Shown here piece by piece: positions 5,193-47,093 of a stretch of 58,358 nucleotides of DNA (positions are counted from its first letter, which is position 1; every line of letters starts with the position of its first letter). The position numbers were made by a program, and so were the translations under genes. The notes under the pieces are model-generated. The model ran no database searches, was not told where the DNA came from, and was given only the letters and a program-made list of their open reading frames with translations. The stretch lies in assembly GCA_007376535.1 (NCBI GenBank), contig VMGK01000002.1, positions 1-58,358 on the forward strand, in the 5' to 3' direction. Source of the DNA: Candidatus Berkelbacteria bacterium Licking1014_7 (lineage in GTDB: Bacteria; Patescibacteriota; UBA1384; GWA2-35-9; CG2-30-39-44).

Positions 5193-5197
5193 AATTG

Positions 5198-5254
5198 TTA
5201 AATAAGAATTAAGAATTAAGAATGAAGAAATTAAATTATAATTAAGAAATTTTT
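5198..5254. repeat. 57-nt AT-rich module D (AATAAGAATTAAGAATTAAGAATGAAGAAATTAAATTATAATTAAGAAATTTTT)
   Basis: Identical to 18298..18354. Both copies abut the start codon of an r-protein gene (rpsN, rpsL). Degenerate copies lie at 18456..18494, about 37110..37170 and about 46690..46750. Confidence 0.9.
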
Positions 5255-10886: not shown

Positions 10887-11494
10887 TGTAAAATATAAAC
10901 GAGACATTTGTTGGGACCGGCGACTGAACCAGAAACAACCAATAAATTATTTTTTTCATCTTTGTCAATAATGGTTAAATTTTTTATGGTGGTTTTTGTC
11001 GCGCCCATTCGCCCGGGCATTTTTTTCCCTGCCACCACTCTTTGCGGAAACATTGAACCGATTGATCCGGGCGAACGATGATGTTGCGATCCATGTGTTT
11101 CAGGACCGCGCGAAAAACTATGTCTTTTGATTACGCCGCTAAATCCTTTACCTTTGCTCGTTGAGACAGCATAGACTTTTTCGCCCGGACTAAATTGATC
11201 GATCTTTAATTCGTCGCCATTTTTAAAATTAAATTTGTCCGTCTTGCGAAAACTGATGAATTTTGAGAATTTGTCCTCAATTTTATTTTTTTTAAGCGCG
11301 CCTTGCGTGGCTTGGTTGATTTTGTTTTTGGTGTAGAATGCGACAATAAAATTTGGGTTGGTTTCGTCTGGGTTAATTACGGCTGATTTTTCTAATTTAA
11401 GCACAGTTATTGGAATGGCTTTTCCTTTATCATTAAAAATTCTGCTCATACCGAGTTTTCTAAAAATGCCTAATTTTGATACAGAATTTTTCAT
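10883..11494 (-). CDS. rplC: 50S ribosomal protein L3
   Basis: LGIFRKLGMSRIFNDKGKAIPITVL aligns to the canonical L3 N-terminus. The ATG at 11494 is preferred over the TTG at 11542. Confidence 0.9.
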   Translation of the reverse strand: MKNSVSKLGIFRKLGMSRIFNDKGKAIPITVLKLEKSAVINPDETNPNFIVAFYTKNKINQATQGALKKNKIEDKFSKFISFRKTDKFNFKNGDELKIDQFSPGEKVYAVSTSKGKGFSGVIKRHSFSRGPETHGSQHHRSPGSIGSMFPQRVVAGKKMPGRMGATKTTIKNLTIIDKDEKNNLLVVSGSVAGPNKCLVYILQ

Positions 11495-11872: not shown

Positions 11873-11891
11873 AAAATGTTGCTTAAATCAT

Positions 11892-12115
11892 AATTACTCT
11901 AATCGTTTACAAATTCCAATGGATCAAAATATAATTTAGAGGAGAGATGCGCGAAGTTCGGCGAAACGATGATTGGCTTTGCAAAATCATTGAACATTGA
12001 GATTTGGAATTTGATTGAACATTGATGCTTGAGAATTGGAATTTTTATCATTGAGCATTGAGAATAATTTTTAACGAAAATCTTAAGTCAAAAAACTTAT
12101 TGCTTTTTGATTTAA
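11892..12115 (-). repeat. module E copy 2 (reverse orientation, with about 50-nt internal insert)
   Basis: Shares AATCGTTTACAAATTCCAATG...ATTGAACATTGATGCTTGAGAATTGGAATTTTTATCATTGAGCATTGAGAATAATTTTTA with 40195..40366. Confidence 0.9.
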
Positions 12116-12144
12116 TACAATACCTCTTGCTCTAGCGAAGCATT

Positions 12145-13329
12145 TTACTTATTAATTTTGGTAACCATTCCCGCGCCGACTGTTTTTCCGCCTTCTCGGA
12201 TGGCAAAACGCATGCCATCTTCCATTGCCACTGCCTGAAGCAACTTGATTTTTAGATTGATAGTATCGCCTGGAATTACCATTTCAGTGCCGGCTGGAAG
12301 TTCCTCGACTGTGCCAGTTACATCAGTGGTTCTGATGTAAAATTGCGGTTTGTAGTTTTTGAAAAATGGGCTGTGTCGTCCGCCTTCTTCTTTGGTTAAA
12401 ATATAAATCTCCGCTTCAAATTCAGTATGGGGTGTAATTGACTTGGGTTTGGCTAAAACCTGTCCTCGCTCAACGTCAGTTCTTTCAACGCCGCGAAGTA
12501 GTACGCCCACATTGTCGCCGGCTTGACCTTGGTCTAATTCTTTTCTAAACATTTCTACGCCAGTAACAATGGTTTTTTTGGTTGGTTTAAGACCAACAAT
12601 TTCAACTTCTTCATTTACCTTTATCTTGCCGCGTTCAATTCTGCCGGTTGCGACTGTGCCTCTGCCTTTGATTGAAAACACATCTTCAATTGGCATTAAA
12701 AAATCTTTATCAATTTCTCTTTTGGGCTCGGTAATTTTTTCGTCCAACGCTTTTACTAATTCCTCAATTGATTTTTCTGCCTCGGCATCACCTTCCAACG
12801 CTTTTAACGCCGAACCGCGCACAATCGCCGCATTGTCGCCATCGTATTCATATTTACTTAAAAGTTCGCGGATTTCCATTTCTACCAAATCAAGCATTTC
12901 TTTATCGCTAACTTGGTCAATTTTATTCATATAAACAACCACGGCTGGCACGCCAACTTGACGGCTAAGAAGTATATGCTCTCTGGTTTGGGGCATGGGA
13001 CCGTCTGTCGCCGCCACCACCAGAATTGCGCCGTCCATTTGAGCCGCGCCAGTAATCATATTTTTAACATAATCAGCATGACCCGGGCAGTCAACATGCG
13101 CATAGTGTCTTTTTTCTGACTCAAACTCGGTATGGCAGGTAGCGATAGTGATACCGCGCGCCTTTTCTTCCGGCGCTTTGTCAATTTGATCAACTGCTAT
13201 GGCTTTTGCCAGACCTTTTTTTTCCTGCACTTTTAAGATGGCGGCAGTGAGAGTTGTTTTGCCGTGGTCAACATGACCAATTGTTCCCACATTAATATGT
13301 GGTTTATTTCTCAGAAATTTTTCAGCCAT
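12145..13329 (-). CDS. tuf: elongation factor Tu
   Basis: [18 protein letters not shown] and NKID GTPase motifs. SD GGAGG lies upstream. Confidence 0.98.
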
Positions 13330-13393
13330 TTTATTTCCTCCGCTCCGCCGGGCAACTTGCCGGCGGGCACTATTTTTTTTGAATACAATTAAA

Positions 13394-13509
13394 TTAAATC
13401 AAAAATTAAACAGCAAAAAGCAAAAACAAATATCAAAATGTAAAAATATTTTTAATTTTTGATATGCCTGCCCCATAATCCCGCCACTGCGGGATGTTAG
13501 GGGTAATTT
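13394..13509. repeat. composite intergenic repeat, inverted partner of 4..119
   Basis: See 4..119. Followed by further modules to about 13680. Confidence 0.85.
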
Positions 13510-13687
13510 AATTTCTTCATTCTACCCCGCCCGCCTTTGACTGAGCCAAAGGCGATGGCGGGCGGGCGAAGCAATGGCGGGCAGGTCTTTTGTAAATAGA
13601 TTTCATTCTGGCAGGGCAGGCATTCTTAATTCTTATTTAACAAAGAATGCCGAGGGCAAAGCCCGAGGATTCTTTGTATTATTATAC

Positions 13688-13716
13688 ATTATATATAAGA
13701 TTGCGCAAGGGGTCAA
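13688..13716 (-). promoter_or_regulatory. sigma70-like promoter facing tuf: TTGACC-N17-TATAAT
   Basis: The reverse complement of 13688..13716 reads TTGACC ccttgcgcaatcttata TATAAT. Confidence 0.45.
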
Positions 13717-13737
13717 GAGTCAGATAGTCAGATAAAT

Positions 13738-13778
13738 TCCAAACCTGCAAACAGGTCAGACCTGTTTGCAGGTTTGGA
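13738..13778. promoter_or_regulatory. perfect 19-bp inverted repeat with 3-nt loop (TCCAAACCTGCAAACAGGT cag ACCTGTTTGCAGGTTTGGA)
   Basis: Read directly. No U-tract on either strand. Lies between two divergent promoter-like sequences. Confidence 0.8.
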
Positions 13779-13855
13779 TATGTCAAATTATTGCAAATTA
13801 TAAGTTTAATGGTATAGATGTTGGTATGGGTTTGGTTTGCGGGATTTTTAAGCCC

Positions 13856-13883
13856 TTGCATAAATTTTTTTCTCTGCTATAGT
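13856..13883 (+). promoter_or_regulatory. promoter-like TTGCAT-N16-TATAGT for the 317-aa orphan gene
   Basis: Spacing counted by hand. SD GAGGAG lies 7 nt before the ATG at 13937. Confidence 0.4.
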
Positions 13884-13936
13884 GATATTATATATTAAAA
13901 GTATTTTGACAAACAGACAAGCAGAGGAGCAGAGAA

Positions 13937-14890
13937 ATGCCAAACGAAACCGTTGATAAGACAGTTGTTGCGCCAGAATCAGATTGGCAGATTGATTACT
14001 TTATGAGTGTCGATACAGGGGAGGATGTTAGGTCTTTTACAGCCATTGATTTTTGTACAAGTTGTCCGAAAGGTTCCGAAGAGAGAATCTTGAACTCTTT
14101 ACTTATGAGGCATCGACCAGCGCATATTGTTGTTCCAGAAGATAGATACTCAGAGAAAAGGCAAGAGAACGCTTTGCCTGCATTACGTCTCTTTTTGCAT
14201 TGGACATTACAAGGACAAGAATCGTTAGTTTTGGTTGCTTGGACAACTTTATCTGATTTGAAGAACCATGTTAGACAATTTCCTGATGACATTAAGACCA
14301 TCTGGACAGAAAAACTGCGTCAGGTAGGTGAGAAATTGGCGTCGTGTCTCAATGGAGAACAAATAGGTGTTGATTTTTCTGAACGATTATCTGTAAGTGA
14401 TATTCCTGAAGAATTGCGAGCAGAAGTTGATGAACGGATTAAGTGGATAGAAATGTACAATCAATATTATACAAGTTATTCTTTCGGTACTCGTCAATTT
14501 ATTCCAGTCGTTGCTATTGACCCTAGTGGTAAAAGATATCTGGGGTTTAGGCAAAGGATAGATATGGTTAAGTATGTTTTAGATTTGATTAAGACCCGTC
14601 GCATTGCTTTTATTAATGGTTTAGATGACACAGGCAGTGATGCTCACATTGGATTTTATCATCCAGATTCTATGGAAATTGTCGAAGTATCTCTAATTAG
14701 TGAGTTAAATGAAGAGACGGCGCGTCATTTCAATTGCTTAAAACAATGGCAGGTAATTCAACAAAGAAAAAGAGAAAGTCGGGAAAAAAGCATGCAATAT
14801 CAAGATGAAGTAGAAGCAGAGTGTATTCAACGAGAACAACAAGAACAAGCGAAGAAAAGCAAAGCCATAAGAGCTGCCTTTACCCTCTAA
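13937..14890 (+). CDS. orphan 317-aa soluble protein with Glu/Gln/Lys-rich C-terminal tail; no family recognised
   Basis: Long ORF with an SD site and its own promoter-like sequence and terminator. Opposite strand to the flanking tuf and fusA. Confidence 0.75.
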   Translation: MPNETVDKTVVAPESDWQIDYFMSVDTGEDVRSFTAIDFCTSCPKGSEERILNSLLMRHRPAHIVVPEDRYSEKRQENALPALRLFLHWTLQGQESLVLVAWTTLSDLKNHVRQFPDDIKTIWTEKLRQVGEKLASCLNGEQIGVDFSERLSVSDIPEELRAEVDERIKWIEMYNQYYTSYSFGTRQFIPVVAIDPSGKRYLGFRQRIDMVKYVLDLIKTRRIAFINGLDDTGSDAHIGFYHPDSMEIVEVSLISELNEETARHFNCLKQWQVIQQRKRESREKSMQYQDEVEAECIQREQQEQAKKSKAIRAAFTL

Positions 14891-14908
14891 CTTCTTCACC
14901 CATTTTCT

Positions 14909-14932
14909 ACCCGCCTCCAAGCGGGTTTTTTG
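14909..14932 (+). terminator. rho-independent terminator ACCCGC-ctccaa-GCGGGT-TTTTT
   Basis: Hairpin plus T-run 19 nt after the stop at 14890. It has no U-tract when read on the minus strand. Confidence 0.7.
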
Positions 14933-14983
14933 GTTAAATTAAAATTTAGAACTTTATTAACGGGGCGCACAGATCCAAACGGT

Positions 14984-17089
14984 CTACTTAACCTTACCCT
15001 CTATTATGTTTTGGGTAATTTGCCTCGGCACTGTTTCATAATGGTCAAATTCCATTGAATAATTCGCGCGACCTTGTGTCATTGAGCGCAAAGTCGTGGC
15101 ATAGCCGAACATTTCCGCCAGCGGAACTTTTGCGTTAATCACTTTGACATTTCCCCGTTCGCTGGTCTCTTCGATTTGTCCTCGTTTAGATGAAAGGTCG
15201 CCGATTACATCGCCAAAGTGATTCTCTGGCGTGGTCACTTCAACTTTCATTATTGGTTCTAGGATTATTGGTTTGGCTCTTTTGACTGCTTCTTGTAAAG
15301 CGATTGATCCAGCAATGTGAAACGCCAGTTCGGACGAATCAACATCGTGAAAACTTCCGTCAAAAAGCGTGACTCTTAAGTCAACGATGGGGTAGCCGGC
15401 AATTACGCCTTTTGAGACCGCCAGTTTTACCCCTTTTTCAATGGCTGGAATAAATTCTTGCGGGATAATGCCGCCTTTAATTGCATTTTCAAATTCAAAT
15501 CCCTCTCCCCTTTCTTTGGGTTCTATTTTAATCACCACGTGTCCGTATTGACCGCGACCACCGGTTTGCCGTATATATTTTCCTTCGGCTTGCGCTGAGG
15601 CGGAAATTGTTTCTTTGTAGGCGACTTGGGGTTGCGACACATTCGCTCCCACTTTAAATTCTCGTTTCATCCGCTCAACTAAAATTTCCAAATGCAACTC
15701 GCCCATGCCAGAAATAATGGTTTGATTGGTCTCTTCGTTTGTTTTGATTTCAAAGGTCGGGTCTTCTCGGGCGAGTTTTTGCAAAGCAAGGCCCATTTTT
15801 TCTTGATCTATTTTGGTTTTTGGCTCAATTGCGACTGAAATAACCGGGTCGGGAAAGTGAATCGTTTCAAGGACAATGGGTTTTTCCGGGTCGCATAACG
15901 TATCGCCGGTCGTGGTTTCTTTCAGTCCGACTGCCGCGCCGATTTCGCCGGCAGAAATTTCTTGAATTTCTTCGCGGTGGTTGGAGTGCATTAGGACAAT
16001 TCTGCCAATTCGTTCTTTTTTGTTTTTTGAAGCATTTAAAACATAAGTGCCGACTTTTAAGGCACCTGAGTAGACCCTAAAAAAAGTTAAAGTGCCAACG
16101 AAAGGATCAGTGGCGACCTTAAACGCCAGAGCGCTAAACGGCTCACTAACACTGGCTTGTCTGATAATTTGTTCTTCTTCGTTTTGGGGATTCATACCCA
16201 TGATTTGCGGCACATCCAGCGGCGACGGCAAAAGTTCAACAATATAATCAAGCAATTTGGTAATAAAAACCGATCGGCCGTCCGCCACCATCACTGGAAA
16301 ATACTTTCCGCTTTGAGTGGCTTTTCTGAGAGCGGATATGATTTCTGTTTGGCTAAGTTCTTGCCCTTGTAAATATTTTTCCATTAATTTGTCGTTTGTC
16401 TCAACGATTTTCTCAATCATTTCTTCTCTTGCCTTTTGCGCTTTTTCTTTTAAGTCATGAGGAATTTCGGTTTCGATTAAAGCATTGTCCAGCGAAACTG
16501 GATCAGGATTTTTATAAACGAAGGCCTTGTTTTCAATCAGATCAATAATGCCTTTATGCTGGTTGGACTCTCCAATCGGCAAAAAAATTGCCAACACGTT
16601 TCGGCTCAGCCGTTCTTTAATAGAGTTCAAACTCATACTAAAATCGCCGCCGAGCGCGTTGATTTTATTGATAAAGCAAATTCTCGGCACTTGGTATTTA
16701 TCCGCCTGACGCCAGACGGTTTCTGATTGCGGCTCAACCCCCATTTTGCCGTCAAAAATTACCACGGCTCCGTCAAGCACGCGCAGCGATCTTTCCACTT
16801 CTGCGGTAAAATCAACGTGTCCGGGGGTGTCAATGATGTTGATGCGATGATTTTTATCTGTGAGTTTGGATTTCCAAAAGCAGGTGGTGGCAGCCGAGGT
16901 GATGGTGATGCCCCGTTCCCGTTCCTGCTCCATCCAATCCATTACTGCTTCGCCTTTATGCACTTCGCCGATTTTGTAGGTTTTTCCCGTATAAAAAAGT
17001 ATTCGCTCAGTGATGGTTGTTTTACCAGCGTCAATGTGAGCGATAATGCCGATGTTTCTAATTTTGTCTAATGGAATTTGTTCTGGCAT
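14984..17089 (-). CDS. fusA: elongation factor G
   Basis: [17 protein letters not shown] and NKIN motifs, 701 aa. Confidence 0.98.
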
Positions 17090-17149
17090 AATCTAATCTC
17101 AAAATGCAAATCTCAAATCTCAAAATTACATCTTAAAACTAAAAACTTT

Positions 17150-17300
17150 GAATTCAATTTACAATTTACAATTCTCAATTTACATTGAATTTACAATGTT
17201 TCAATTTACAATGTTACAAACAAGTCAAGTGTTGGAAAATTGAGTCATTGAGTCATTGAAAATTTATTGAAAATTAGAAATTGACAATTGAAAATTAGAG
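17150..17300. repeat. AT-rich module I (CAATTTACAATTCTCAATTTACATTGAATTTACAATGTTTCAAT...)
   Basis: Reverse complement of about 42375..42510. The 44-nt core at 17162..17205 equals the reverse complement of 42455..42498. Confidence 0.8.
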
Positions 17301-17328
17301 TTAGTTTTAACATTTGAGTTGTCATTTT

Positions 17329-17370
17329 GCCTGCCCGCTAATCGCCTGAGCGATAGCGATGGCGGGCGGG
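17329..17370 (+). repeat. GC hairpin module B (GCCTGCCCGCTAATCGCCTGAGCGATAGCGATGGCGGGCGGG)
   Basis: Copies or variants lie at 25957..26032, 46855..46895, 51825..51866 (reverse), 52671..52700, 30246..30273 and 13527..13600. Confidence 0.85.
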
Positions 17371-17397
17371 AGATTTTAATTTTGAGATTTTAATTTC

Positions 17398-18297: not shown

Positions 18298-18354
18298 TTA
18301 AATAAGAATTAAGAATTAAGAATGAAGAAATTAAATTATAATTAAGAAATTTTT
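18298..18354. repeat. module D, identical to 5198..5254
   Basis: 57/57 nt identical by eye. Confidence 0.9.
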
Positions 18355-18494
18355 AATTTGTTATTTCAATTGTAAATTCTTCATTTTTATTTCTTATTTA
18401 TTTGATAATGGGCTTCGCCCTCTTGTAATAAAGAATCCGGCTGGCATTCTTGGTTAAATAAGAATTAAGAATTAAGAATGAAGAAATTAAATTA

Positions 18495-18530
18495 CCCCGA
18501 ACATCCCGCCTTGGCGGGATTACGGGGCAG
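18495..18530 (+). repeat. GC hairpin module A (CCCCGAACATCCCGCCTTGGCGGGATTACGGGGCAG)
   Basis: Copies at 10..47, 13466..13503 (reverse), 46753..46790 (reverse) and variant 37177..37214. Confidence 0.9.
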
Positions 18531-18628
18531 TCCCCGATTAGACAGTAAAACGTCTAACGGGGCAGGCAATTAAGAAATTTTTAATTTGCTATTTAAGTTT
18601 TTCATTCTTCGTTTTCATTTCTTATTTA

Positions 18629-21600
18629 TTATGGCTTTCTGTATCCGGTTCCGGCCGGTATCAACCGTCCTATGATAACATTTTCTTTCAATCCTTTCAA
18701 GTTGTCAGTCGCGCCTTTGATGGCCGCGGTAATTAAAGCATTAGTTGTTTCTTGAAATGACGCAGACGATAAAAAGCTTTCTGTTTTCATTGCGCAACGA
18801 GTAATACCCATAATGACTGGCTCGGTTTTTACTTTTAATTTCTTATTTTCAATATTTTCTAAGTCCTTTTTGTTAATTATCTGGTCTTCAATATATTCGT
18901 ACGACTCTGATTCAACTACCCGTCGTCTTCCCACCATCTGCCTGATAATGATTTCAATGTGTTTGTCAGAAATTGCCTGACCTTGTGCCGCATATACTTT
19001 TTGAATCTCGTTAAGAATATATCTAATCACTTTTGGCAAGCCCTGATATTTTACCGCAAATTCAAAATTAAGATGATCGTCGGTGATTAAATCGCCTTTT
19101 TCCACTCTTTGTTTGTCGTTTACCAGCAATTTTGCGTTAAGCGGAGCGTAAAATTGAATGGTCTCTTTTTCTTCCGCTTCAACAATAATTTTACCTTTCA
19201 TCACTTTCGCTTGGCCGGAAAATTTTGCTCTCAGCGGCGATTTATTGTCAGTAATCGCCAAATTTTGCCGGGGAGTTACTTTTTGTCCGGTTTTAATTAA
19301 AACATCATAACCCTGAGTATCAATTTCCTGAATCAACGGATTATCGGCAATCACAAATATATCATATTCCTCCTCTTTTTCAGTAATTTTAATGGTGCCG
19401 TCAATCGGCGAGATGAGGGCGGGTCGTTTAGGTTTTCTGGCTTCAAAAATTTCTTCTACTCTTGGCAAACCAGTGGTAATATCTTCGCCTTGCACGCCTC
19501 CCAAATGGAAGGTCTTCATTGTGAGCTGAGTGCCTGGTTCGCCAATGGCTTGCGCCGCAATAATTCCCACCGCGTCGCCGGGTTGAGCAAGTTTTTTGAA
19601 AGCCATATTCAAGCCATAGCATTTTTGGCAAATTCCCCAGTCCTGCTGACAAAAAATCGGCGTCCTTACTGGTATTTCGGAAATTTCTGATTCATTAATT
19701 TGCTTGGCTTGGGTTTGTGAAACAACCGTATTTTTTCTGACAATCACTTTATTGGTCTTAGGATCGGAAATTTGGGCGGCGGCCACGCGACCGTAAATTC
19801 TTTCTTCAAAGTTAGCAGTGGTATTTTCTGAGTCATCGCGATAGACCAAAATATATTTGTCTGATCCGCAATCCTCGCCATTGATAACAACATCTTGCGA
19901 AACATCGACCAATCGTCTGGTCAAATAACCAGCATCTGAGGTTCGAAGCGAAGTGTCTGATTTTCCTTTTCTGGCGCCGTGCGTGGAGATAAAATATTCA
20001 TAGACCGACAAGCCCTCCTTAAAGTTGGTTTTTATCGGCAATTTAATAATTTCTCCGGTGGGCGACACCACCAAGCCCTTGATACCGCTCATCTGGATAA
20101 TTTGAGCAAACGAGCCCCTTGATCCCGATGCCACCATTTCATAGACCGGGCTCGTTTTATCGTATTGCTTAATCATGGCTTTTTCAATTCTTGATTTTAC
20201 TTGCGACCAAGTATCAATGATTTTGAAGTCCCTTTCTTCTTCAGTTATCAATCCCTGTTCAAATTGACTCTCAGCCAAGGCTACTTGCACGTCTCCTTTT
20301 TTGACTAAACCGTCTTTTTCTCGGGGAATCTGAAGATCGTCGATTGAAATGGTAAGCCCGGATTTGCCTGCCCAGTGAAAACCCAATGACTTGATTTCAT
20401 CTACCATTTTAACCACAGTTTTTTCATCGCAATTTTCATATCCGTCCGATAAAAGTTTTTTTAACTTTTTGTTATCCATGGTCTTGTTGATAAAACGCAT
20501 GGCTTTGGGAATAATATTGTTAAACAAAATTCTTCCGACTGAGGTTTCAATAATTTTACCGTTTGAGAGTCGCACTTTAATTCTCTCCCTTACTTCTACC
20601 CGGTCTAATTGATAGGCCAAAATTGCTTCGTTTTTATTAGAAAAGATTTTGATTTTGTCCTTTTTTTGCTCGTCAATTTTGGTGAGATAATATATTCCAT
20701 AAACAATATCGTAACGCGCCTGAACCACTGGTTCGCCCGAGGCGGGTTTTAATAAATTTTTCACTGACGCCATAATTTGCTCTGCTTCGGCTTTGGCCGG
20801 GGTGGATAATGGCAAATGCACTGCCATTTGGTCGCCATCAAAGTCAGCGTTGTAAGCATAACAAACCAATGGGTGAATTTGAATGGCTTTTCCTTCCACC
20901 AAAATTGGCTGAAACGCTTGAATGCCCAGACGATGCAAAGTAGGCGCGCGGTTTAAGAGCACCCAGCTTTTGGCGGAAATTCTTTCCAAAATTTCATAGA
21001 CCTCTGGTGTTCCTTTGTCAACCAAACGGGCGGCGTTTTTGATGTTGTGAACATAGCCTTCTTTAATCAGTTTGCTCATCACAAATGGCTTATAAAGCTC
21101 AAGCGCGATTTTTTTAGGCAAACCGCATTGGTTTAATTTGAGTTCAGGTCCCACCACAATCACGCTTCTACCTGAATAATCCACCCTTTTACCAAGTAAG
21201 TTTTGTCTAAAACGACCTTGTTTTCCTTTAAGCATGTCTGAAAGCGATCTAAGTTTTCGTTGTCCGGCGCCAGCGGTTTGAGGCGCTTTGCCCCGACGGG
21301 AATTATTGTCAATCAACGCGTCAACTGCTTCTTGCAACATTCTTTTTTCATTTCTGGTGATGACTTCTGGCGCGCCTTGTTCAATCAATTTTTTCAAACG
21401 GTTGTTGCGGTTAATTACCCTTCGATAAAGATCGTTTAAGTCAGATGCGGCGAAGCGCCCGCCGTCTAATTGCACCATTGGTCTCAGGTCTGGCGGAATA
21501 ACCGGAATTTTGATGAGCATTAAAGATTCTGGTTTAATTTCAGCTTTTTGCATATCGGATAAGACCTTAATCCGTCTGAGCATTTTTTTTTGGCTGGAGG

Positions 21601-37101: not shown

Positions 37102-37225
37102 AAGACGTCTTTTGTTAAATAAGAAATAAAAATGAAGAATTAAGAATTGAAATAGTAAATCGAAAATTTCTTAATTGCCTGCCCCGTAAAATTGCGAAGT
37201 AATTTATTCGGGGTAATTTAATTTC

Positions 37226-38362
37226 TTAATTATTCATTCTTAATTTTAATTTAATAAAGTCCTTTATTTTCATTCTAAATTGTTCGGGCGTAAATTGCAA
37301 GGCGCGCTCCCGGCATTCTTGAGATGAAAACTTTTTCTTTTCAAAAATCTTTATGGCAGAGATTACATTTTGATAATTTTGCCGGTCAAAAAAAATTCCG
37401 GTTTTTCCTTCAATCACAGTTTCTAACGCCCCGCCTTTTTTATAGGCAATGACTGGCGTGCCCGCGCTCATTGCTTCAAGCGGAGTAATGCCAAAATCCT
37501 CAAGCGCTGGAAAAATATAGGCGCGGGCATTTTGATAAAGTGAAACCAAACGATTGTCTGGCACTCTGTCCAAAAATGAAATATTTTCCGATATGGCTAA
37601 TTTTTCTAAGCGATTTCTGTCTGATCCAGCGCCCGCGATGATCAATTTTTTTTCTGGCATTTGGTTGAATGCCTTGATTGCAATATCATATTTTTTATAT
37701 GGCACTAACCGTCCGCCCATTAAATAGTAGTCCTGTTTTTTGGTCTTAGGCAAAAATAATTCTGTTTCAACTGACGGATAAATTACTATTGACTCCCGTC
37801 CGTAAATACTTTTAATTCGTTTTTGCACTTCGCGCGAATTGGCAATATAAAAATCCGGTCTTTGGCTGGCGCGAAAATCCCATTTCTTGAGATATGGCAA
37901 ATATAAATCTAGCAATGGACGCAAAATTTTCGGCACAGAGGTCTCCAGATAAAAATTTTTATCAATCCAAAGATATCTGGTGGGCGTGTTGCAATAGCAA
38001 ATATGGATTTGGTGGGGATTGCGTTTTTTAACTCCTTTGACTAAAGCGGAAGTGAGCGAAATCACCAAATCATAATTTTTCAAATTCCAATTCTCAATCA
38101 CATTAGGATAAAACGGCAATAATTTTTTATAAATTTTTTTGGAAAATGGCAGTTTTTGCAGCCAGGAAGTTATGATTTTATATTTGCCAAATGTCTGTCC
38201 GCAAACATCGGAATTATAAATTAAAGTATAGATTGTGGCTTGGGGAAAAATTTCTAAAAATTCTTTGAGCACTCGTTCAGCGCCGCCCATTTGCGTCAAA
38301 ATTTCGTGGACAATCGCCACGCGCAAATGATCAAACGAGTTGTTTGCTTTTTTGTTTAACAT
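37226..38362 (-). CDS. glycosyltransferase, GT4/group 1 family
   Basis: C-terminal EDFGITPLEAMSAGTPVIA (E-x7-E region), 378 aa. Confidence 0.85.
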   Translation of the reverse strand: MLNKKANNSFDHLRVAIVHEILTQMGGAERVLKEFLEIFPQATIYTLIYNSDVCGQTFGKYKIITSWLQKLPFSKKIYKKLLPFYPNVIENWNLKNYDLVISLTSALVKGVKKRNPHQIHICYCNTPTRYLWIDKNFYLETSVPKILRPLLDLYLPYLKKWDFRASQRPDFYIANSREVQKRIKSIYGRESIVIYPSVETELFLPKTKKQDYYLMGGRLVPYKKYDIAIKAFNQMPEKKLIIAGAGSDRNRLEKLAISENISFLDRVPDNRLVSLYQNARAYIFPALEDFGITPLEAMSAGTPVIAYKKGGALETVIEGKTGIFFDRQNYQNVISAIKIFEKKKFSSQECRERALQFTPEQFRMKIKDFIKLKLRMNN

Positions 38363-40194: not shown

Positions 40195-40366
40195 AATCGT
40201 TTACAAATTCCAATGAATCAAAATCTCAAGGAATCATTGAACATTGAAATTTGGAATTTGATTGAACATTGATGTTTGAGAATTGGAATTTTTATCATTG
40301 AGCATTGAGAATAATTTTTATCATAAATCTTAAGTCAAAAAACTTTTTACTTTTTGATTTTTGATT
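40195..40366 (-). repeat. module E copy 4 (reverse orientation, with 25-nt internal duplication)
   Basis: Aligns to the reverse complement of 7629..7714 and to 11892..12115. Confidence 0.9.
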
Positions 40367-40370
40367 TAAT

Positions 40371-41720
40371 TTAATATGCTCCTCTTCCTTTCAAAACCAC
40401 CCCAATCGTCTTGATTAAAATAATCAGATCAAGCCACAGCGACCAGTTTTCAATATAATAAACATCCAAGCGCACCCATTCGTCAAAGTCCAAATCCGAT
40501 CTGCCAGAAACCTGCCAGAGTCCGGTGATGCCCGGCTTTATACCCAATCGTCTTTTATGCCAAGCGCTATAATGCTTAACTTCTTCGGACATGGGCGGGC
40601 GCGGACCAATCAGCGACATCTCGCCCCGCAAAACATTAAAAAATTGAGGCAGTTCGTCAAGCGAGTATTTGCGCAAAAATTTACCAAATCCAAAAACCCG
40701 CGGATCGTCTTTCAACTTAAACATATTACCGTATTTTTTAATATATTCTGTATGCAATTTATGAGCGTCGGGAACCATCGTGCGAAATTTCAAAAACCAA
40801 AATTCTTCACCCAATCCAACTCTTTTTTGTCGGAAAAAAATCGGACCGTTAGGCGAAGAAATTTTTATTCCCAAAGCGCAAAAAATAAAAACTGGCGACA
40901 ATATCAAAATTAAAATTAAACCAGCCACAATATCAAAAATTCTTTTATAAATCGCGCCCCAGCCGAACAGCGGCGTGCGTTGATATTCAATAATCGGTAT
41001 GCCAGCCAAAAGCGTAAGATCTATTTTTGACGACTGGACTTTGAAAAGATTGGGAATTACCTTAAATCCAATCCCCTTTTCCTGACAATATTCCAAAAGA
41101 TTTGAAATTTGTTTTTCGCTTGCCAAAGTATCTGCCACAATCACTTCATCAATCCCTTCGCCCAAAACCGATAAATTTTTAGTAAAAATATTATGATCCA
41201 GAATTTTTACGATTTTATACCCCCAACTTTTATCATTTTTCAAACTGTTAATTACGGTTTTAGCCAAACCGTGATTGCCGATTATTGCCACCCGAATAAT
41301 TCCAACATCAAATTTATACAAATAGTGCTGTAAAAAATTTAAAATAACCCGATAAATCGAGACAAATAAAATCGAAAATCCCAGCGCGTAAAAAATCACC
41401 AAGCGGGAAAAGAAGTCGGTTCTTGATAAAAATATATATGAAATAGCCAGAAGTGTTGAAGCAAAAGAACCAATCACTACTCGCGAGAGTTCCTCAAATC
41501 CCCGTCCTTTTTCTTGGGGAATATAAAGTTTTAGAAAAACAAAAATAATTACCCACAAAAAAGCGATACCAAGAGTAAATCTCAAATATTCGTTAAAACC
41601 CCAAACATAATCATATTCAAAATAGGTTCGGATAAAATAAGCCAGCAAAAATGCCGCTGAGACAAAAATATAATCCAGTGGAACTTTTACCGCGCTAAAA
41701 ATTATCTTTGATCTTTTCAT
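40371..41720 (-). CDS. polyprenyl-phosphate sugar phosphotransferase (WbaP/bacterial sugar transferase family)
   Basis: N-terminal TM helices and a C-terminal catalytic domain (PRPPMSEEV..., GITGLWQVSGRSDL, YIENWSLWLDL). Confidence 0.9.
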   Translation of the reverse strand: MKRSKIIFSAVKVPLDYIFVSAAFLLAYFIRTYFEYDYVWGFNEYLRFTLGIAFLWVIIFVFLKLYIPQEKGRGFEELSRVVIGSFASTLLAISYIFLSRTDFFSRLVIFYALGFSILFVSIYRVILNFLQHYLYKFDVGIIRVAIIGNHGLAKTVINSLKNDKSWGYKIVKILDHNIFTKNLSVLGEGIDEVIVADTLASEKQISNLLEYCQEKGIGFKVIPNLFKVQSSKIDLTLLAGIPIIEYQRTPLFGWGAIYKRIFDIVAGLILILILSPVFIFCALGIKISSPNGPIFFRQKRVGLGEEFWFLKFRTMVPDAHKLHTEYIKKYGNMFKLKDDPRVFGFGKFLRKYSLDELPQFFNVLRGEMSLIGPRPPMSEEVKHYSAWHKRRLGIKPGITGLWQVSGRSDLDFDEWVRLDVYYIENWSLWLDLIILIKTIGVVLKGRGAY

Positions 41721-46682: not shown

Positions 46683-46752
46683 ATTACTAAACAAATAAGA
46701 ATTAAAAATGAAGAATTTACAATTGAAATAGTAAATCAAAAATTTCTTAATT

Positions 46753-46790
46753 GCCTGCCCCGTAATCCCGCCAAGGCGGGATGTTCGGGG
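46753..46790 (-). repeat. module A copy
   Basis: GCCTGCCCCGTAATCCCGCCAAGGCGGGATGTTCGGGG. Confidence 0.9.
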
Positions 46791-46854
46791 TAATTTAATT
46801 TCTTCATTCTACCCCGCCTGCATTCAATCTCTTGCAAAAATAGGTGATTATTCC

Positions 46855-46895
46855 CCCGCCTGCTAATCGCCTGAGCGATAGCGATGGCGGGCAGG
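46855..46895 (+). repeat. module B copy
   Basis: CCCGCCTGCTAATCGCCTGAGCGATAGCGATGGCGGGCAGG. Confidence 0.9.
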
Positions 46896-47093
46896 TCTTT
46901 TGCAAACCCGCCGTCGTTCAATCTCTTTGAGAAGTAGATGATTATTTCTTTTCTCAAATTAGATTTCACTTTGGCGGGCGCGGTAGATTTCATTTTGGCG
47001 GGCAGGCATTTTGAGATTTGAATTTTGAGATTTGAGATTGAATCTTTTATTCATTCTTAATTTTAATTTAATAAAGAATGCCAGTCGGATTCT

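Follow-up and report, generated by a model that had tools for sequence, protein, structure and literature searches.

A putative clade-restricted accessory gene antisense in the fusA-tuf spacer of Berkelbacteria-like Patescibacteria

The antisense gene and its control signals

We analyzed a stretch of 58,358 nucleotides from Candidatus Berkelbacteria bacterium Licking1014_7 (assembly GCA_007376535.1, contig VMGK01000002.1), hereafter called the window, with the focus on ORF317, an open reading frame (ORF) of 317 codons located between fusA and tuf. As in the canonical str operon (rpsL-rpsG-fusA-tufA) of the rpoBC-str-S10-spc supercluster, the gene order is kept on one strand in the window, with rpoB-rpoC-rpsL-rpsG-fusA followed by tuf-rpsJ-rplC-rplD on the minus strand. 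The difference lies at the fusA-tuf junction, which canonically has a gap of tens to less than 200 bp and no gene in it, whereas the window has a spacer of 1654 bp and an antisense gene. A preliminary description of this DNA had reported such a gene and taken it for an orphan inserted into the operon. The gene itself is present as described and is the sole long ORF of the spacer, with 93 bp between its stop codon and that of fusA. The principal features are as follows.

12145-13329, minus strand: tuf (EF-Tu, 394 aa)
13856-13883, plus strand: promoter-like TTGCAT-N16-TATAGT with a TGn extended -10 (TGCTATAGT), read from the sequence
13906-13912, no strand assigned: TTGACAA motif in the 5' untranslated region of ORF317, a few bases upstream of the Shine-Dalgarno site
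13924-13929, plus strand: Shine-Dalgarno site GAGGAG, 7 nt before the ATG of ORF317
13937-14890, plus strand: ORF317 (317 aa, 954 bp, ATG start)
14909-14931, plus strand: ORF317's intrinsic terminator, a hairpin at 14909-14926 (ACCCGC-loop-GCGGGT) with a T-run after it
14984-17089, minus strand: fusA (EF-G, 701 aa), convergent with ORF317

By base composition, the expected number of 317-codon open frames in the entire window is about 2e-4. Trained on 36 further genes of the window, a codon model assigned +0.13 bits/codon to the frame of ORF317 and -0.48 or lower to each of the other five frames, and the score of ORF317 exceeded all off-frame scores of real genes (maximum -0.07). The start codon and the N-terminus align with those of the homologs presented below. 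Because the length is improbable by chance, the coding score is confined to its own frame and the start aligns with homologs, ORF317 is on sequence criteria a genuine protein-coding gene. Its GC content (0.385) is the same as that of the window's genes. Two minus-strand ORFs beneath it (101 and 60 aa) were rejected as non-coding, their frames scoring -0.6 to -0.7 bits/codon. A tRNA search of the region found none.

The Shine-Dalgarno site, the promoter-like sequence and the one-way terminator listed in the preliminary description were all found at ORF317. The homologs have AGGAGG at the same place as the Shine-Dalgarno site, and an A/T-rich -10-like element occurs at the matching relative position in two sister loci (L083 and L001, introduced below). 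The promoter-like site is missing from the list of our consensus scan because its -35 element matches at just 3 of 6 positions; across the region, the 6 promoter-like hits show no excess over the 5.1 expected in shuffled sequences. The terminator was called on the plus strand only, and no T-run follows the hairpin in the fusA sense. These signals suggest that ORF317 would form a self-contained transcription unit with a weak -35/extended -10 promoter, a ribosome-binding site and a one-way intrinsic terminator, and that fusA transcripts probably run antisense into it.

Homologs in sister lineages and the fusA-tuf junction

An exhaustive phmmer search of 1.84 billion cluster representatives with ORF317 gave a sole weak match, P0002 (293 aa), with 23% identity and an E-value of 4.9e-4. 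The two proteins align collinearly between an N-terminal (G/D)WQI and the AFxL found at both C-termini. P0002 is encoded on a 1.65-kb contig (L001) that is too short to include fusA, and its gene is divergent from one for a membrane-anchored FecR-like protein. A word-indexed search of 5.8 billion proteins returned ORF317 alone and, with a two-sequence profile, ORF317 and P0002; it missed a 72-member Berkelbacteria cluster (clustered at 90% identity) despite long exact words in common with P0002. This cluster was reached via fusA synteny. The window's EF-G is at best 64-66% identical to those of GTDB species representatives, which places it in the Patescibacteria, and 79% identical to relatives in a larger protein collection, including Candidatus Berkelbacteria CG_4_9_14_3_um_filter_39_23. 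A first scan of metagenomes gave no match and a second gave one extra locus of this same sister species. Contig L002 also carries ORF317, and since it is 100% identical to the window over 20,954 bp it adds no independent information.

Five loci of the CG_4_9_14_3_um_filter_39_23 species (L083-L086 and L089) carry fusA, an antisense gene of 292 codons, a divergent gene for a protein with a FecR domain, and tuf. The 292-aa protein is 45% identical to P0002 and 21-22% identical to ORF317 over residues 15-317, a range over which ORF317 matches the sister loci in tblastn at E-values of 2e-9 to 2e-11. On two contigs of a third sister lineage (L087 and L090), whose EF-G is 92% identical to that of L083, the sequence ends within an antisense ORF directly after fusA; its 44 and 109 C-terminal residues available there can be aligned with the family and finish with GEAFTL. 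With only the three other lineages in it, a family profile matched ORF317 at an E-value of 1.1e-16 over positions 9-283 of the hidden Markov model (HMM), with the runner-up among the window's 366 six-frame ORFs at 1.5. The term orphan in the preliminary description is therefore apt insofar as no family can be assigned, but not as regards relatives, which are present, though distant, in three sister lineages.

Deposited Candidatus Berkelbacteria proteins, namely PIV25657.1 (300 aa) and the fragments PIZ28876.1 and PIZ28877.1 (COY44_01630 and COY44_01635), are true homologs of ORF317 with 21-23% identity over the full length. Their genes resemble that of the window in lying antisense after fusA, in the position of the terminator and in the 5' motif. 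They differ from ORF317 in size (292-300 aa as compared to 317), as they lack a 13-residue insert and the N-terminal and C-terminal-tail extensions of ORF317. They are also paired with the FecR-domain gene and often frameshifted, whereas the window has no FecR-domain gene.

The synteny comparison proposed in the preliminary description gave a consistent picture: in all three lineages with fusA on the contig, the window included, the family gene lies antisense right after fusA. The TTGACAA motif is invariant in the three lineages whose contigs reach the start of the family gene. Its minus-strand reading, TTGTCA, forms the -35 element of a promoter-like TTGTCA-N16-TAATAT (13912-13885), whose counterpart in L083 is TTGTCA-N16-TATCCT; in the sister lineages such a site faces the FecR-domain gene. 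A hairpin occurs at the terminator position in four of four lineages, with differing stem sequences, and is followed by a T-tract in the three lineages whose contigs run beyond it. The common position and orientation, terminator place and 5' motif imply that the gene predates the split of these lineages. Based on these comparisons, we conclude that ORF317 is orthologous across a Berkelbacteria-like clade and was in place before its lineages diverged.

This conclusion bears directly on the claim of an insertion, in its strongest form a recent horizontal arrival of an orphan, possibly mobile, gene that split the str operon and brought along a promoter for tuf. Such an event would agree with the lack of homologs beyond a narrow clade, with the atypical codon usage and GC content at third codon positions (GC3), with a segment that is free of the genome's dispersed repeats, and with a strong outward-facing promoter at the segment edge. 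However, the place and orientation are the same in sister lineages whose ribosomal protein L4 is only 41% identical to that of the window, and the terminator position and 5' motif are held in common. The overall GC content is that of the genome. No transposase, integrase, terminal repeat or target duplication was found around ORF317 with Pfam, PHROG and a repeat analysis, and records of phages, plasmids and viral contigs gave no match. By these searches, ORF317 appears to have no mobile-element, prophage or plasmid hallmarks. We consider a recent insertion extremely unlikely.

The promoter that the insertion was thought to have supplied is part of a second group of features, located between ORF317 and tuf.

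13330-13680, minus strand: tuf leader, a mosaic of dispersed intergenic repeat modules
13716-13688, minus strand: tuf promoter TTGACC-N17-TATAAT (11/12), from the consensus scan
13738-13778, no strand assigned: perfect 20+1+20 palindrome, unique in the window

The tuf-facing promoter is thus where the preliminary description had placed it, but its proposed origin does not hold. The counterpart in L083 (CTTGACT-N17-TATAAT, 11/12, 11076-11104) lies just after the FecR-domain gene, about 145 nt upstream of tuf, and is separated from the family gene by the whole FecR-domain gene. Two outgroups without the family gene have similar sequences near tuf, namely TTGACT-N17-TATTAT in L091, which has a spacer of 150 bp, and TTGACA-N17-TATTAT in L088, which has a different spacer gene. 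The presence of a σ70-like tuf promoter in these outgroups implies that the window's promoter was not brought by an insertion. We conclude from these sequence comparisons that the promoter at 13716-13688 is tuf's own, older than the family gene and ancestral to the clade, so that tuf expression would need nothing from ORF317. In E. coli, too, tufA is known to have a secondary promoter.

The arrangement could alternatively act in cis, with convergent transcription and fusA read-through forming an excludon-like switch on the fusA-to-tuf transcript, or the reverse, and with the protein being secondary. Wherever the two genes share a contig, as they do in three lineages, the family gene and fusA converge. 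In all three lineages with readable sequence the T-tract follows the hairpin in the sense of the family gene only, which leaves fusA without a canonical terminator there, and the palindrome is a strong, unique hairpin on the minus strand just upstream of the tuf promoter. Against a role in cis, protein motifs are conserved while synonymous sites are saturated, which argues that the product matters. Moreover, each lineage examined shows a separate tuf promoter, and L083 has a possible hairpin with a T-rich tail in the fusA sense. A primary role in cis is very unlikely in our view. What is seen here of excludon-like regulation is the geometry alone (convergent genes and a one-way terminator), and it would not be needed for tuf expression.

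The palindrome has a folding free energy of -35 kcal/mol (z -6.4) and scores as terminator-like on the minus strand (tail ATTTATCT). It sits in a stretch of about 170 bp between the TTGACAA/TTGTCA motif and the tuf promoter, and may stop transcripts from fusA, or from the leftover divergent promoter, before the tuf promoter is reached. Judged from its sequence, it could be a terminator/insulator or an operator. A search of Rfam at gathering and E-value thresholds gave just meaningless miRNA-like matches on it. A 59-aa ORF placed over the palindrome by the gene caller was rejected as non-coding, its translation being featureless.

The segment 13681-14983 has no repeat in common with the rest of the window, in agreement with the preliminary description, and the approximately 350 bp of dispersed repeats between the tuf promoter and tuf are a peculiarity of the window. 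The repeat modules are GC-rich, hairpin-forming and intergenic across the window, with lengths of about 20-115 nt and identities of 90-100%. The other sites of these modules are listed below.

4-119: repeat-module site
5195-5238: repeat-module site
18298-18630: repeat-module site
37210-37227: repeat-module site
40232-40375: repeat-module site
46752-46902: repeat-module site
47052-47082: repeat-module site

The spacers rpsJ-tuf (11873-12144) and fusA-rpsG (17090-17397) are also unusually long, about 270 and 300 bp, and carry mutually related short AT-rich tandem and inverted repeats.

To place the spacer in a broader context, fusA-tuf gaps were compared in 22 named loci from Patescibacteria, also known as the candidate phyla radiation (CPR), and 22 named non-CPR loci, with gap lengths that are approximate as they derive from tblastn alignment ends. 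The gap was about 30-190 bp in the non-CPR loci, whereas 18 of the 22 patescibacterial loci had a gap of 0.5-4.5 kb (median about 0.67 kb) with other genes inside. Thus, fusA-tuf contiguity, which the preliminary description took to be normal, is the rule in the non-CPR bacteria sampled, whereas the junction is routinely open in Patescibacteria. In Gammaproteobacteria, breaks of the supercluster are reported to be selected against, and an insert would need to bring a suitable promoter (PMC6735719).

The family gene was not present in relatives at 67-70% EF-G identity (L091, L094, L088 and L093). In L091 and L094, fusA and tuf are contiguous with a gap of about 150 bp, and L088 and L093 have unrelated same-strand spacer genes of 481 and 388 aa. 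A search of the other fetched loci with the family profile by hmmsearch yielded no further member. The antisense spacer ORFs of L004 (180 aa) and L008 (126 aa) were considered as relatives and rejected, as hhalign detects no kinship.

The commonest spacer ORF in the CPR loci is a small one of 95-162 aa on the fusA/tuf strand (L005, L006, L012, L013, L015, L018, L021, L041, L048 and L074). Its N-terminus follows the pattern ..GG.V.IVE.GEP..V.L....Y..L, with a sub-threshold likeness to Phd/YefM (E about 1e-3), and roughly half of the proteins end in a LEDLPF/LEDIPF-like sequence. It could represent a conserved CPR gene of the str region that has no name yet. This ORF occupies the same junction as ORF317, which shows that the junction accepts extra genes; unlike ORF317, it lies on the strand of fusA and tuf, and its sequence is unrelated to the ORF317 family. 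Other junctions of the supercluster are likewise broken up in related CPR genomes: L091 and L092 have a NIF3-like gene of 319 aa between rpoB and rpoC (222-1181), and the rpsJ-rplC junction is interrupted by a 1257-aa Big-domain gene in L091 and L092 (9850-13623) and by a 192-aa gene in L088 (11402-11980).

Protein features, rate of change and the FecR-domain partner

The preliminary description of the ORF317 protein agrees with our analysis: hydropathy gave no transmembrane segment (0.78 is the top Kyte-Doolittle mean over 19 residues), Gln, Glu and Lys are abundant in the tail, and library searches with ORF317 (Pfam, PHROG, PADLOC, NCBIfam and PDB sequences) gave no match. The family features in common are the N-terminal (G/D)WQI, an (A/V)(L/D)ER near residue 170, the motif PS..R.LG and a long C-terminal helix with an AFxL end. 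Searches of the PDB sequences with family profiles of 2 and 5 sequences gave nothing (best E-value 0.27), and searches of Pfam and NCBIfam with family members found neither sigma-70 region 2 or 4 nor any other domain. A comparison of the N- and C-terminal halves by hhalign found no internal duplication. The long C-terminal helix is the only confident element in the predicted structure. The protein is predicted to be soluble and of mixed α/β structure, with a long, charged C-terminal helix. The top hits of the model in Foldseek were to the vicinal-oxygen-chelate (glyoxalase/bleomycin-resistance/dioxygenase) fold but fell short of significance, with E-values of at least 0.014 and a template-modelling (TM) score of about 0.15, and were provisionally treated as noise. 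Thus, of the two kinds of searches recommended in the preliminary description, profiles recovered distant homologs and structure comparisons gave no significant fold match. The position is kept within the clade, but no housekeeping family could be assigned.

The family changes much faster than its neighbors. Between the window and L083 the identity is 41% for L4, 69% for RpoC and 79% for EF-G, as compared to 21% for the family protein. Between L083 and L090 the family protein is 31% identical over the 104 residues available, as compared to 92% for EF-G and RpoC and 96% for S12 and S7. With an identity of 31% where EF-G is at 92%, the rate is by itself enough to account for the lack of visible homologs beyond the clade.

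This rate is also pertinent to a birth of the family de novo, from a non-coding fusA-tuf spacer at the base of the clade. The absence of homologs outside the clade among the 1.84 billion representative proteins, the lack of a fold match with low-confidence models, and the long and variable spacers across Patescibacteria would all be in line with such an origin. However, the measured rate suffices to erase homology beyond the clade, so that the orphan status needs no such origin, and it is also contradicted by the length of the proteins (about 290-317 aa), by the regularity of their predicted α/β pattern and by the many W, H, P and D positions that are conserved. We regard a birth de novo as highly improbable.

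Within-species variation was studied in five contigs of one sister species, taken from different samples. The family gene had 10.2 single-nucleotide polymorphisms (SNPs) per kb, the highest value in the locus, as compared to 0-4 for its neighbors, and 7 of its 9 SNPs were at codon positions 1 or 2. Two contigs had independent 1-nt deletions, which affect codons 113 and 130 and lie in A-runs. The cluster at 90% identity comprises 72 members, every name given by the sources being "hypothetical protein", and fragments of 83, 89, 131, 138 and 148 aa were among the 15 listed. Some fragment alleles recur on up to 20 contigs from NCBI, JGI, ENA and Logan, and because these sources are independent the fragments are real alleles and not assembly noise. 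The assemblies of two sister lineages break within the family gene, which fits strain heterogeneity. The preliminary description had named disruption of the ORF in close relatives as an observation that would count against its reading, and the frame is indeed disrupted on many contigs of one sister species. From this variation we conclude that the family gene is non-essential and extremely fast-changing, at least as far as sequences can tell.

The same variation raises the question of whether ORF317 is a decaying relic, a frame that is open but no longer useful, whose ancestral FecR-domain partner is gone and which is heading to loss. Frameshifted alleles are common in the sister species, SNPs fall mostly at codon positions 1 and 2, the partner was not found in the window, and both the coding score and the confidence of the structure prediction are low. 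On the other hand, with a stop probability of 6% per codon, a frame of 317 codons would not stay open for long under neutrality. The length, the start, the C-terminal tip and approximately 45 invariant positions are kept across the three full-length lineages, and the window still has an intact Shine-Dalgarno site, one-way terminator and plausible promoter. Decay is thus unlikely as an account of ORF317.

The FecR-domain gene is paired divergently with the family gene in two of the three sister lineages, at the following positions.

L083, 9385-11073: FecR-domain gene
L001, 1-558: FecR-domain gene

The FecR domain of the L083 partner scores 35 bits in Pfam (cut-off 24), and the FecR-domain neighbors of P0002 and the L083 family gene are 63% identical. 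Besides the FecR domain, the protein has a transmembrane anchor, a long linker rich in Ser and Asn, and a C-terminal domain of unassigned type; its cytoplasmic N-terminus has about 20 residues if the start matches that of the L001 copy. Within the species, 6 of its 7 SNPs are at codon positions 1 or 2 and almost all are non-synonymous. A tblastn search with this protein gave no match in the 58-kb window, where ORF317 would survive alone. PADLOC defence HMMs did not match ORF317, two homologs or the FecR-domain partner. The pairing has a likeness to the FecI/FecR paradigm in that a family gene is located beside one for a membrane-anchored FecR-domain protein in two sister lineages. Unlike in that paradigm, the family lacks sigma-70 regions 2 and 4, and the genes are divergent and not co-transcribed.

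Interpretation and meaning of the locus

Taken together, we favor, with a probability of roughly 0.7, the reading that ORF317 is the ortholog of a small, clade-restricted, uncharacterised family that has been antisense in the fusA-tuf spacer since before the lineages split. Several observations weigh against it. The polymorphism in the sister species looks neutral (ratio of non-synonymous to synonymous changes roughly 1, from 9 SNPs) and is accompanied by frameshifts, so the family may be decaying rather than functional. The window genes score 0.10-0.62 bits/codon, which puts ORF317 near the bottom of the range, and its GC3 is 0.29 as compared to 0.37 for window genes. AlphaFold2 models were poor, with a predicted local distance difference test (pLDDT) score of 43 from the single sequence and 53 from a two-sequence alignment; it was the latter model that gave the glyoxalase hits, and nothing was significant in Foldseek against the PDB (best E-value 0.014, TM score 0.15). 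The family is known from four lineages, two of them on truncated contigs, and because the word-indexed search missed the 72-member cluster, further members may be missed too. As for the partner, finally, the data are compatible with both a loss in the window and a gain in the sister lineages. On balance, our verdict is that ORF317 is probably a clade-restricted and dispensable accessory gene.

As to what this accessory gene does, we tentatively suggest, with low confidence, that the family protein could make up the cytoplasmic half of an accessory cassette of the envelope that evolves quickly and serves surface, host or phage interactions, rather than being a translation or housekeeping protein. 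Three observations underlie this possible role: in two lineages the gene is paired divergently with that of a quickly changing membrane protein, the family itself changes rapidly, and natural knock-outs exist. A bolder and distinctly unlikely idea is that the family gene, with its FecR-domain partner in genomes that have one, is a hypervariable conflict module for surface, host or phage interactions, lodged in the cell's most strongly transcribed gene cluster, gated by head-on fusA read-through and turned off in some members of the population by frameshifts in short A-runs. If true, ultra-small symbiotic bacteria would have a new kind of accessory system that is linked to their translational activity.

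The ORF317 locus reveals no new mechanism. Under the favored reading, what seemed a fresh insertion of an orphan into a universal operon would be a long-standing occupant of a junction that Patescibacteria generally leave open, and the orphan status would follow from a very high rate of change and not from recent arrival. Added interest comes from the variable junction inside the ribosomal supercluster and from a gene that is kept head-on to fusA across the clade. With its defined position, shared control elements and natural knock-outs, the family offers a handle on fast-evolving accessory genes in the CPR, and would also be useful for asking how these bacteria tolerate head-on transcription in the ribosomal-protein supercluster.

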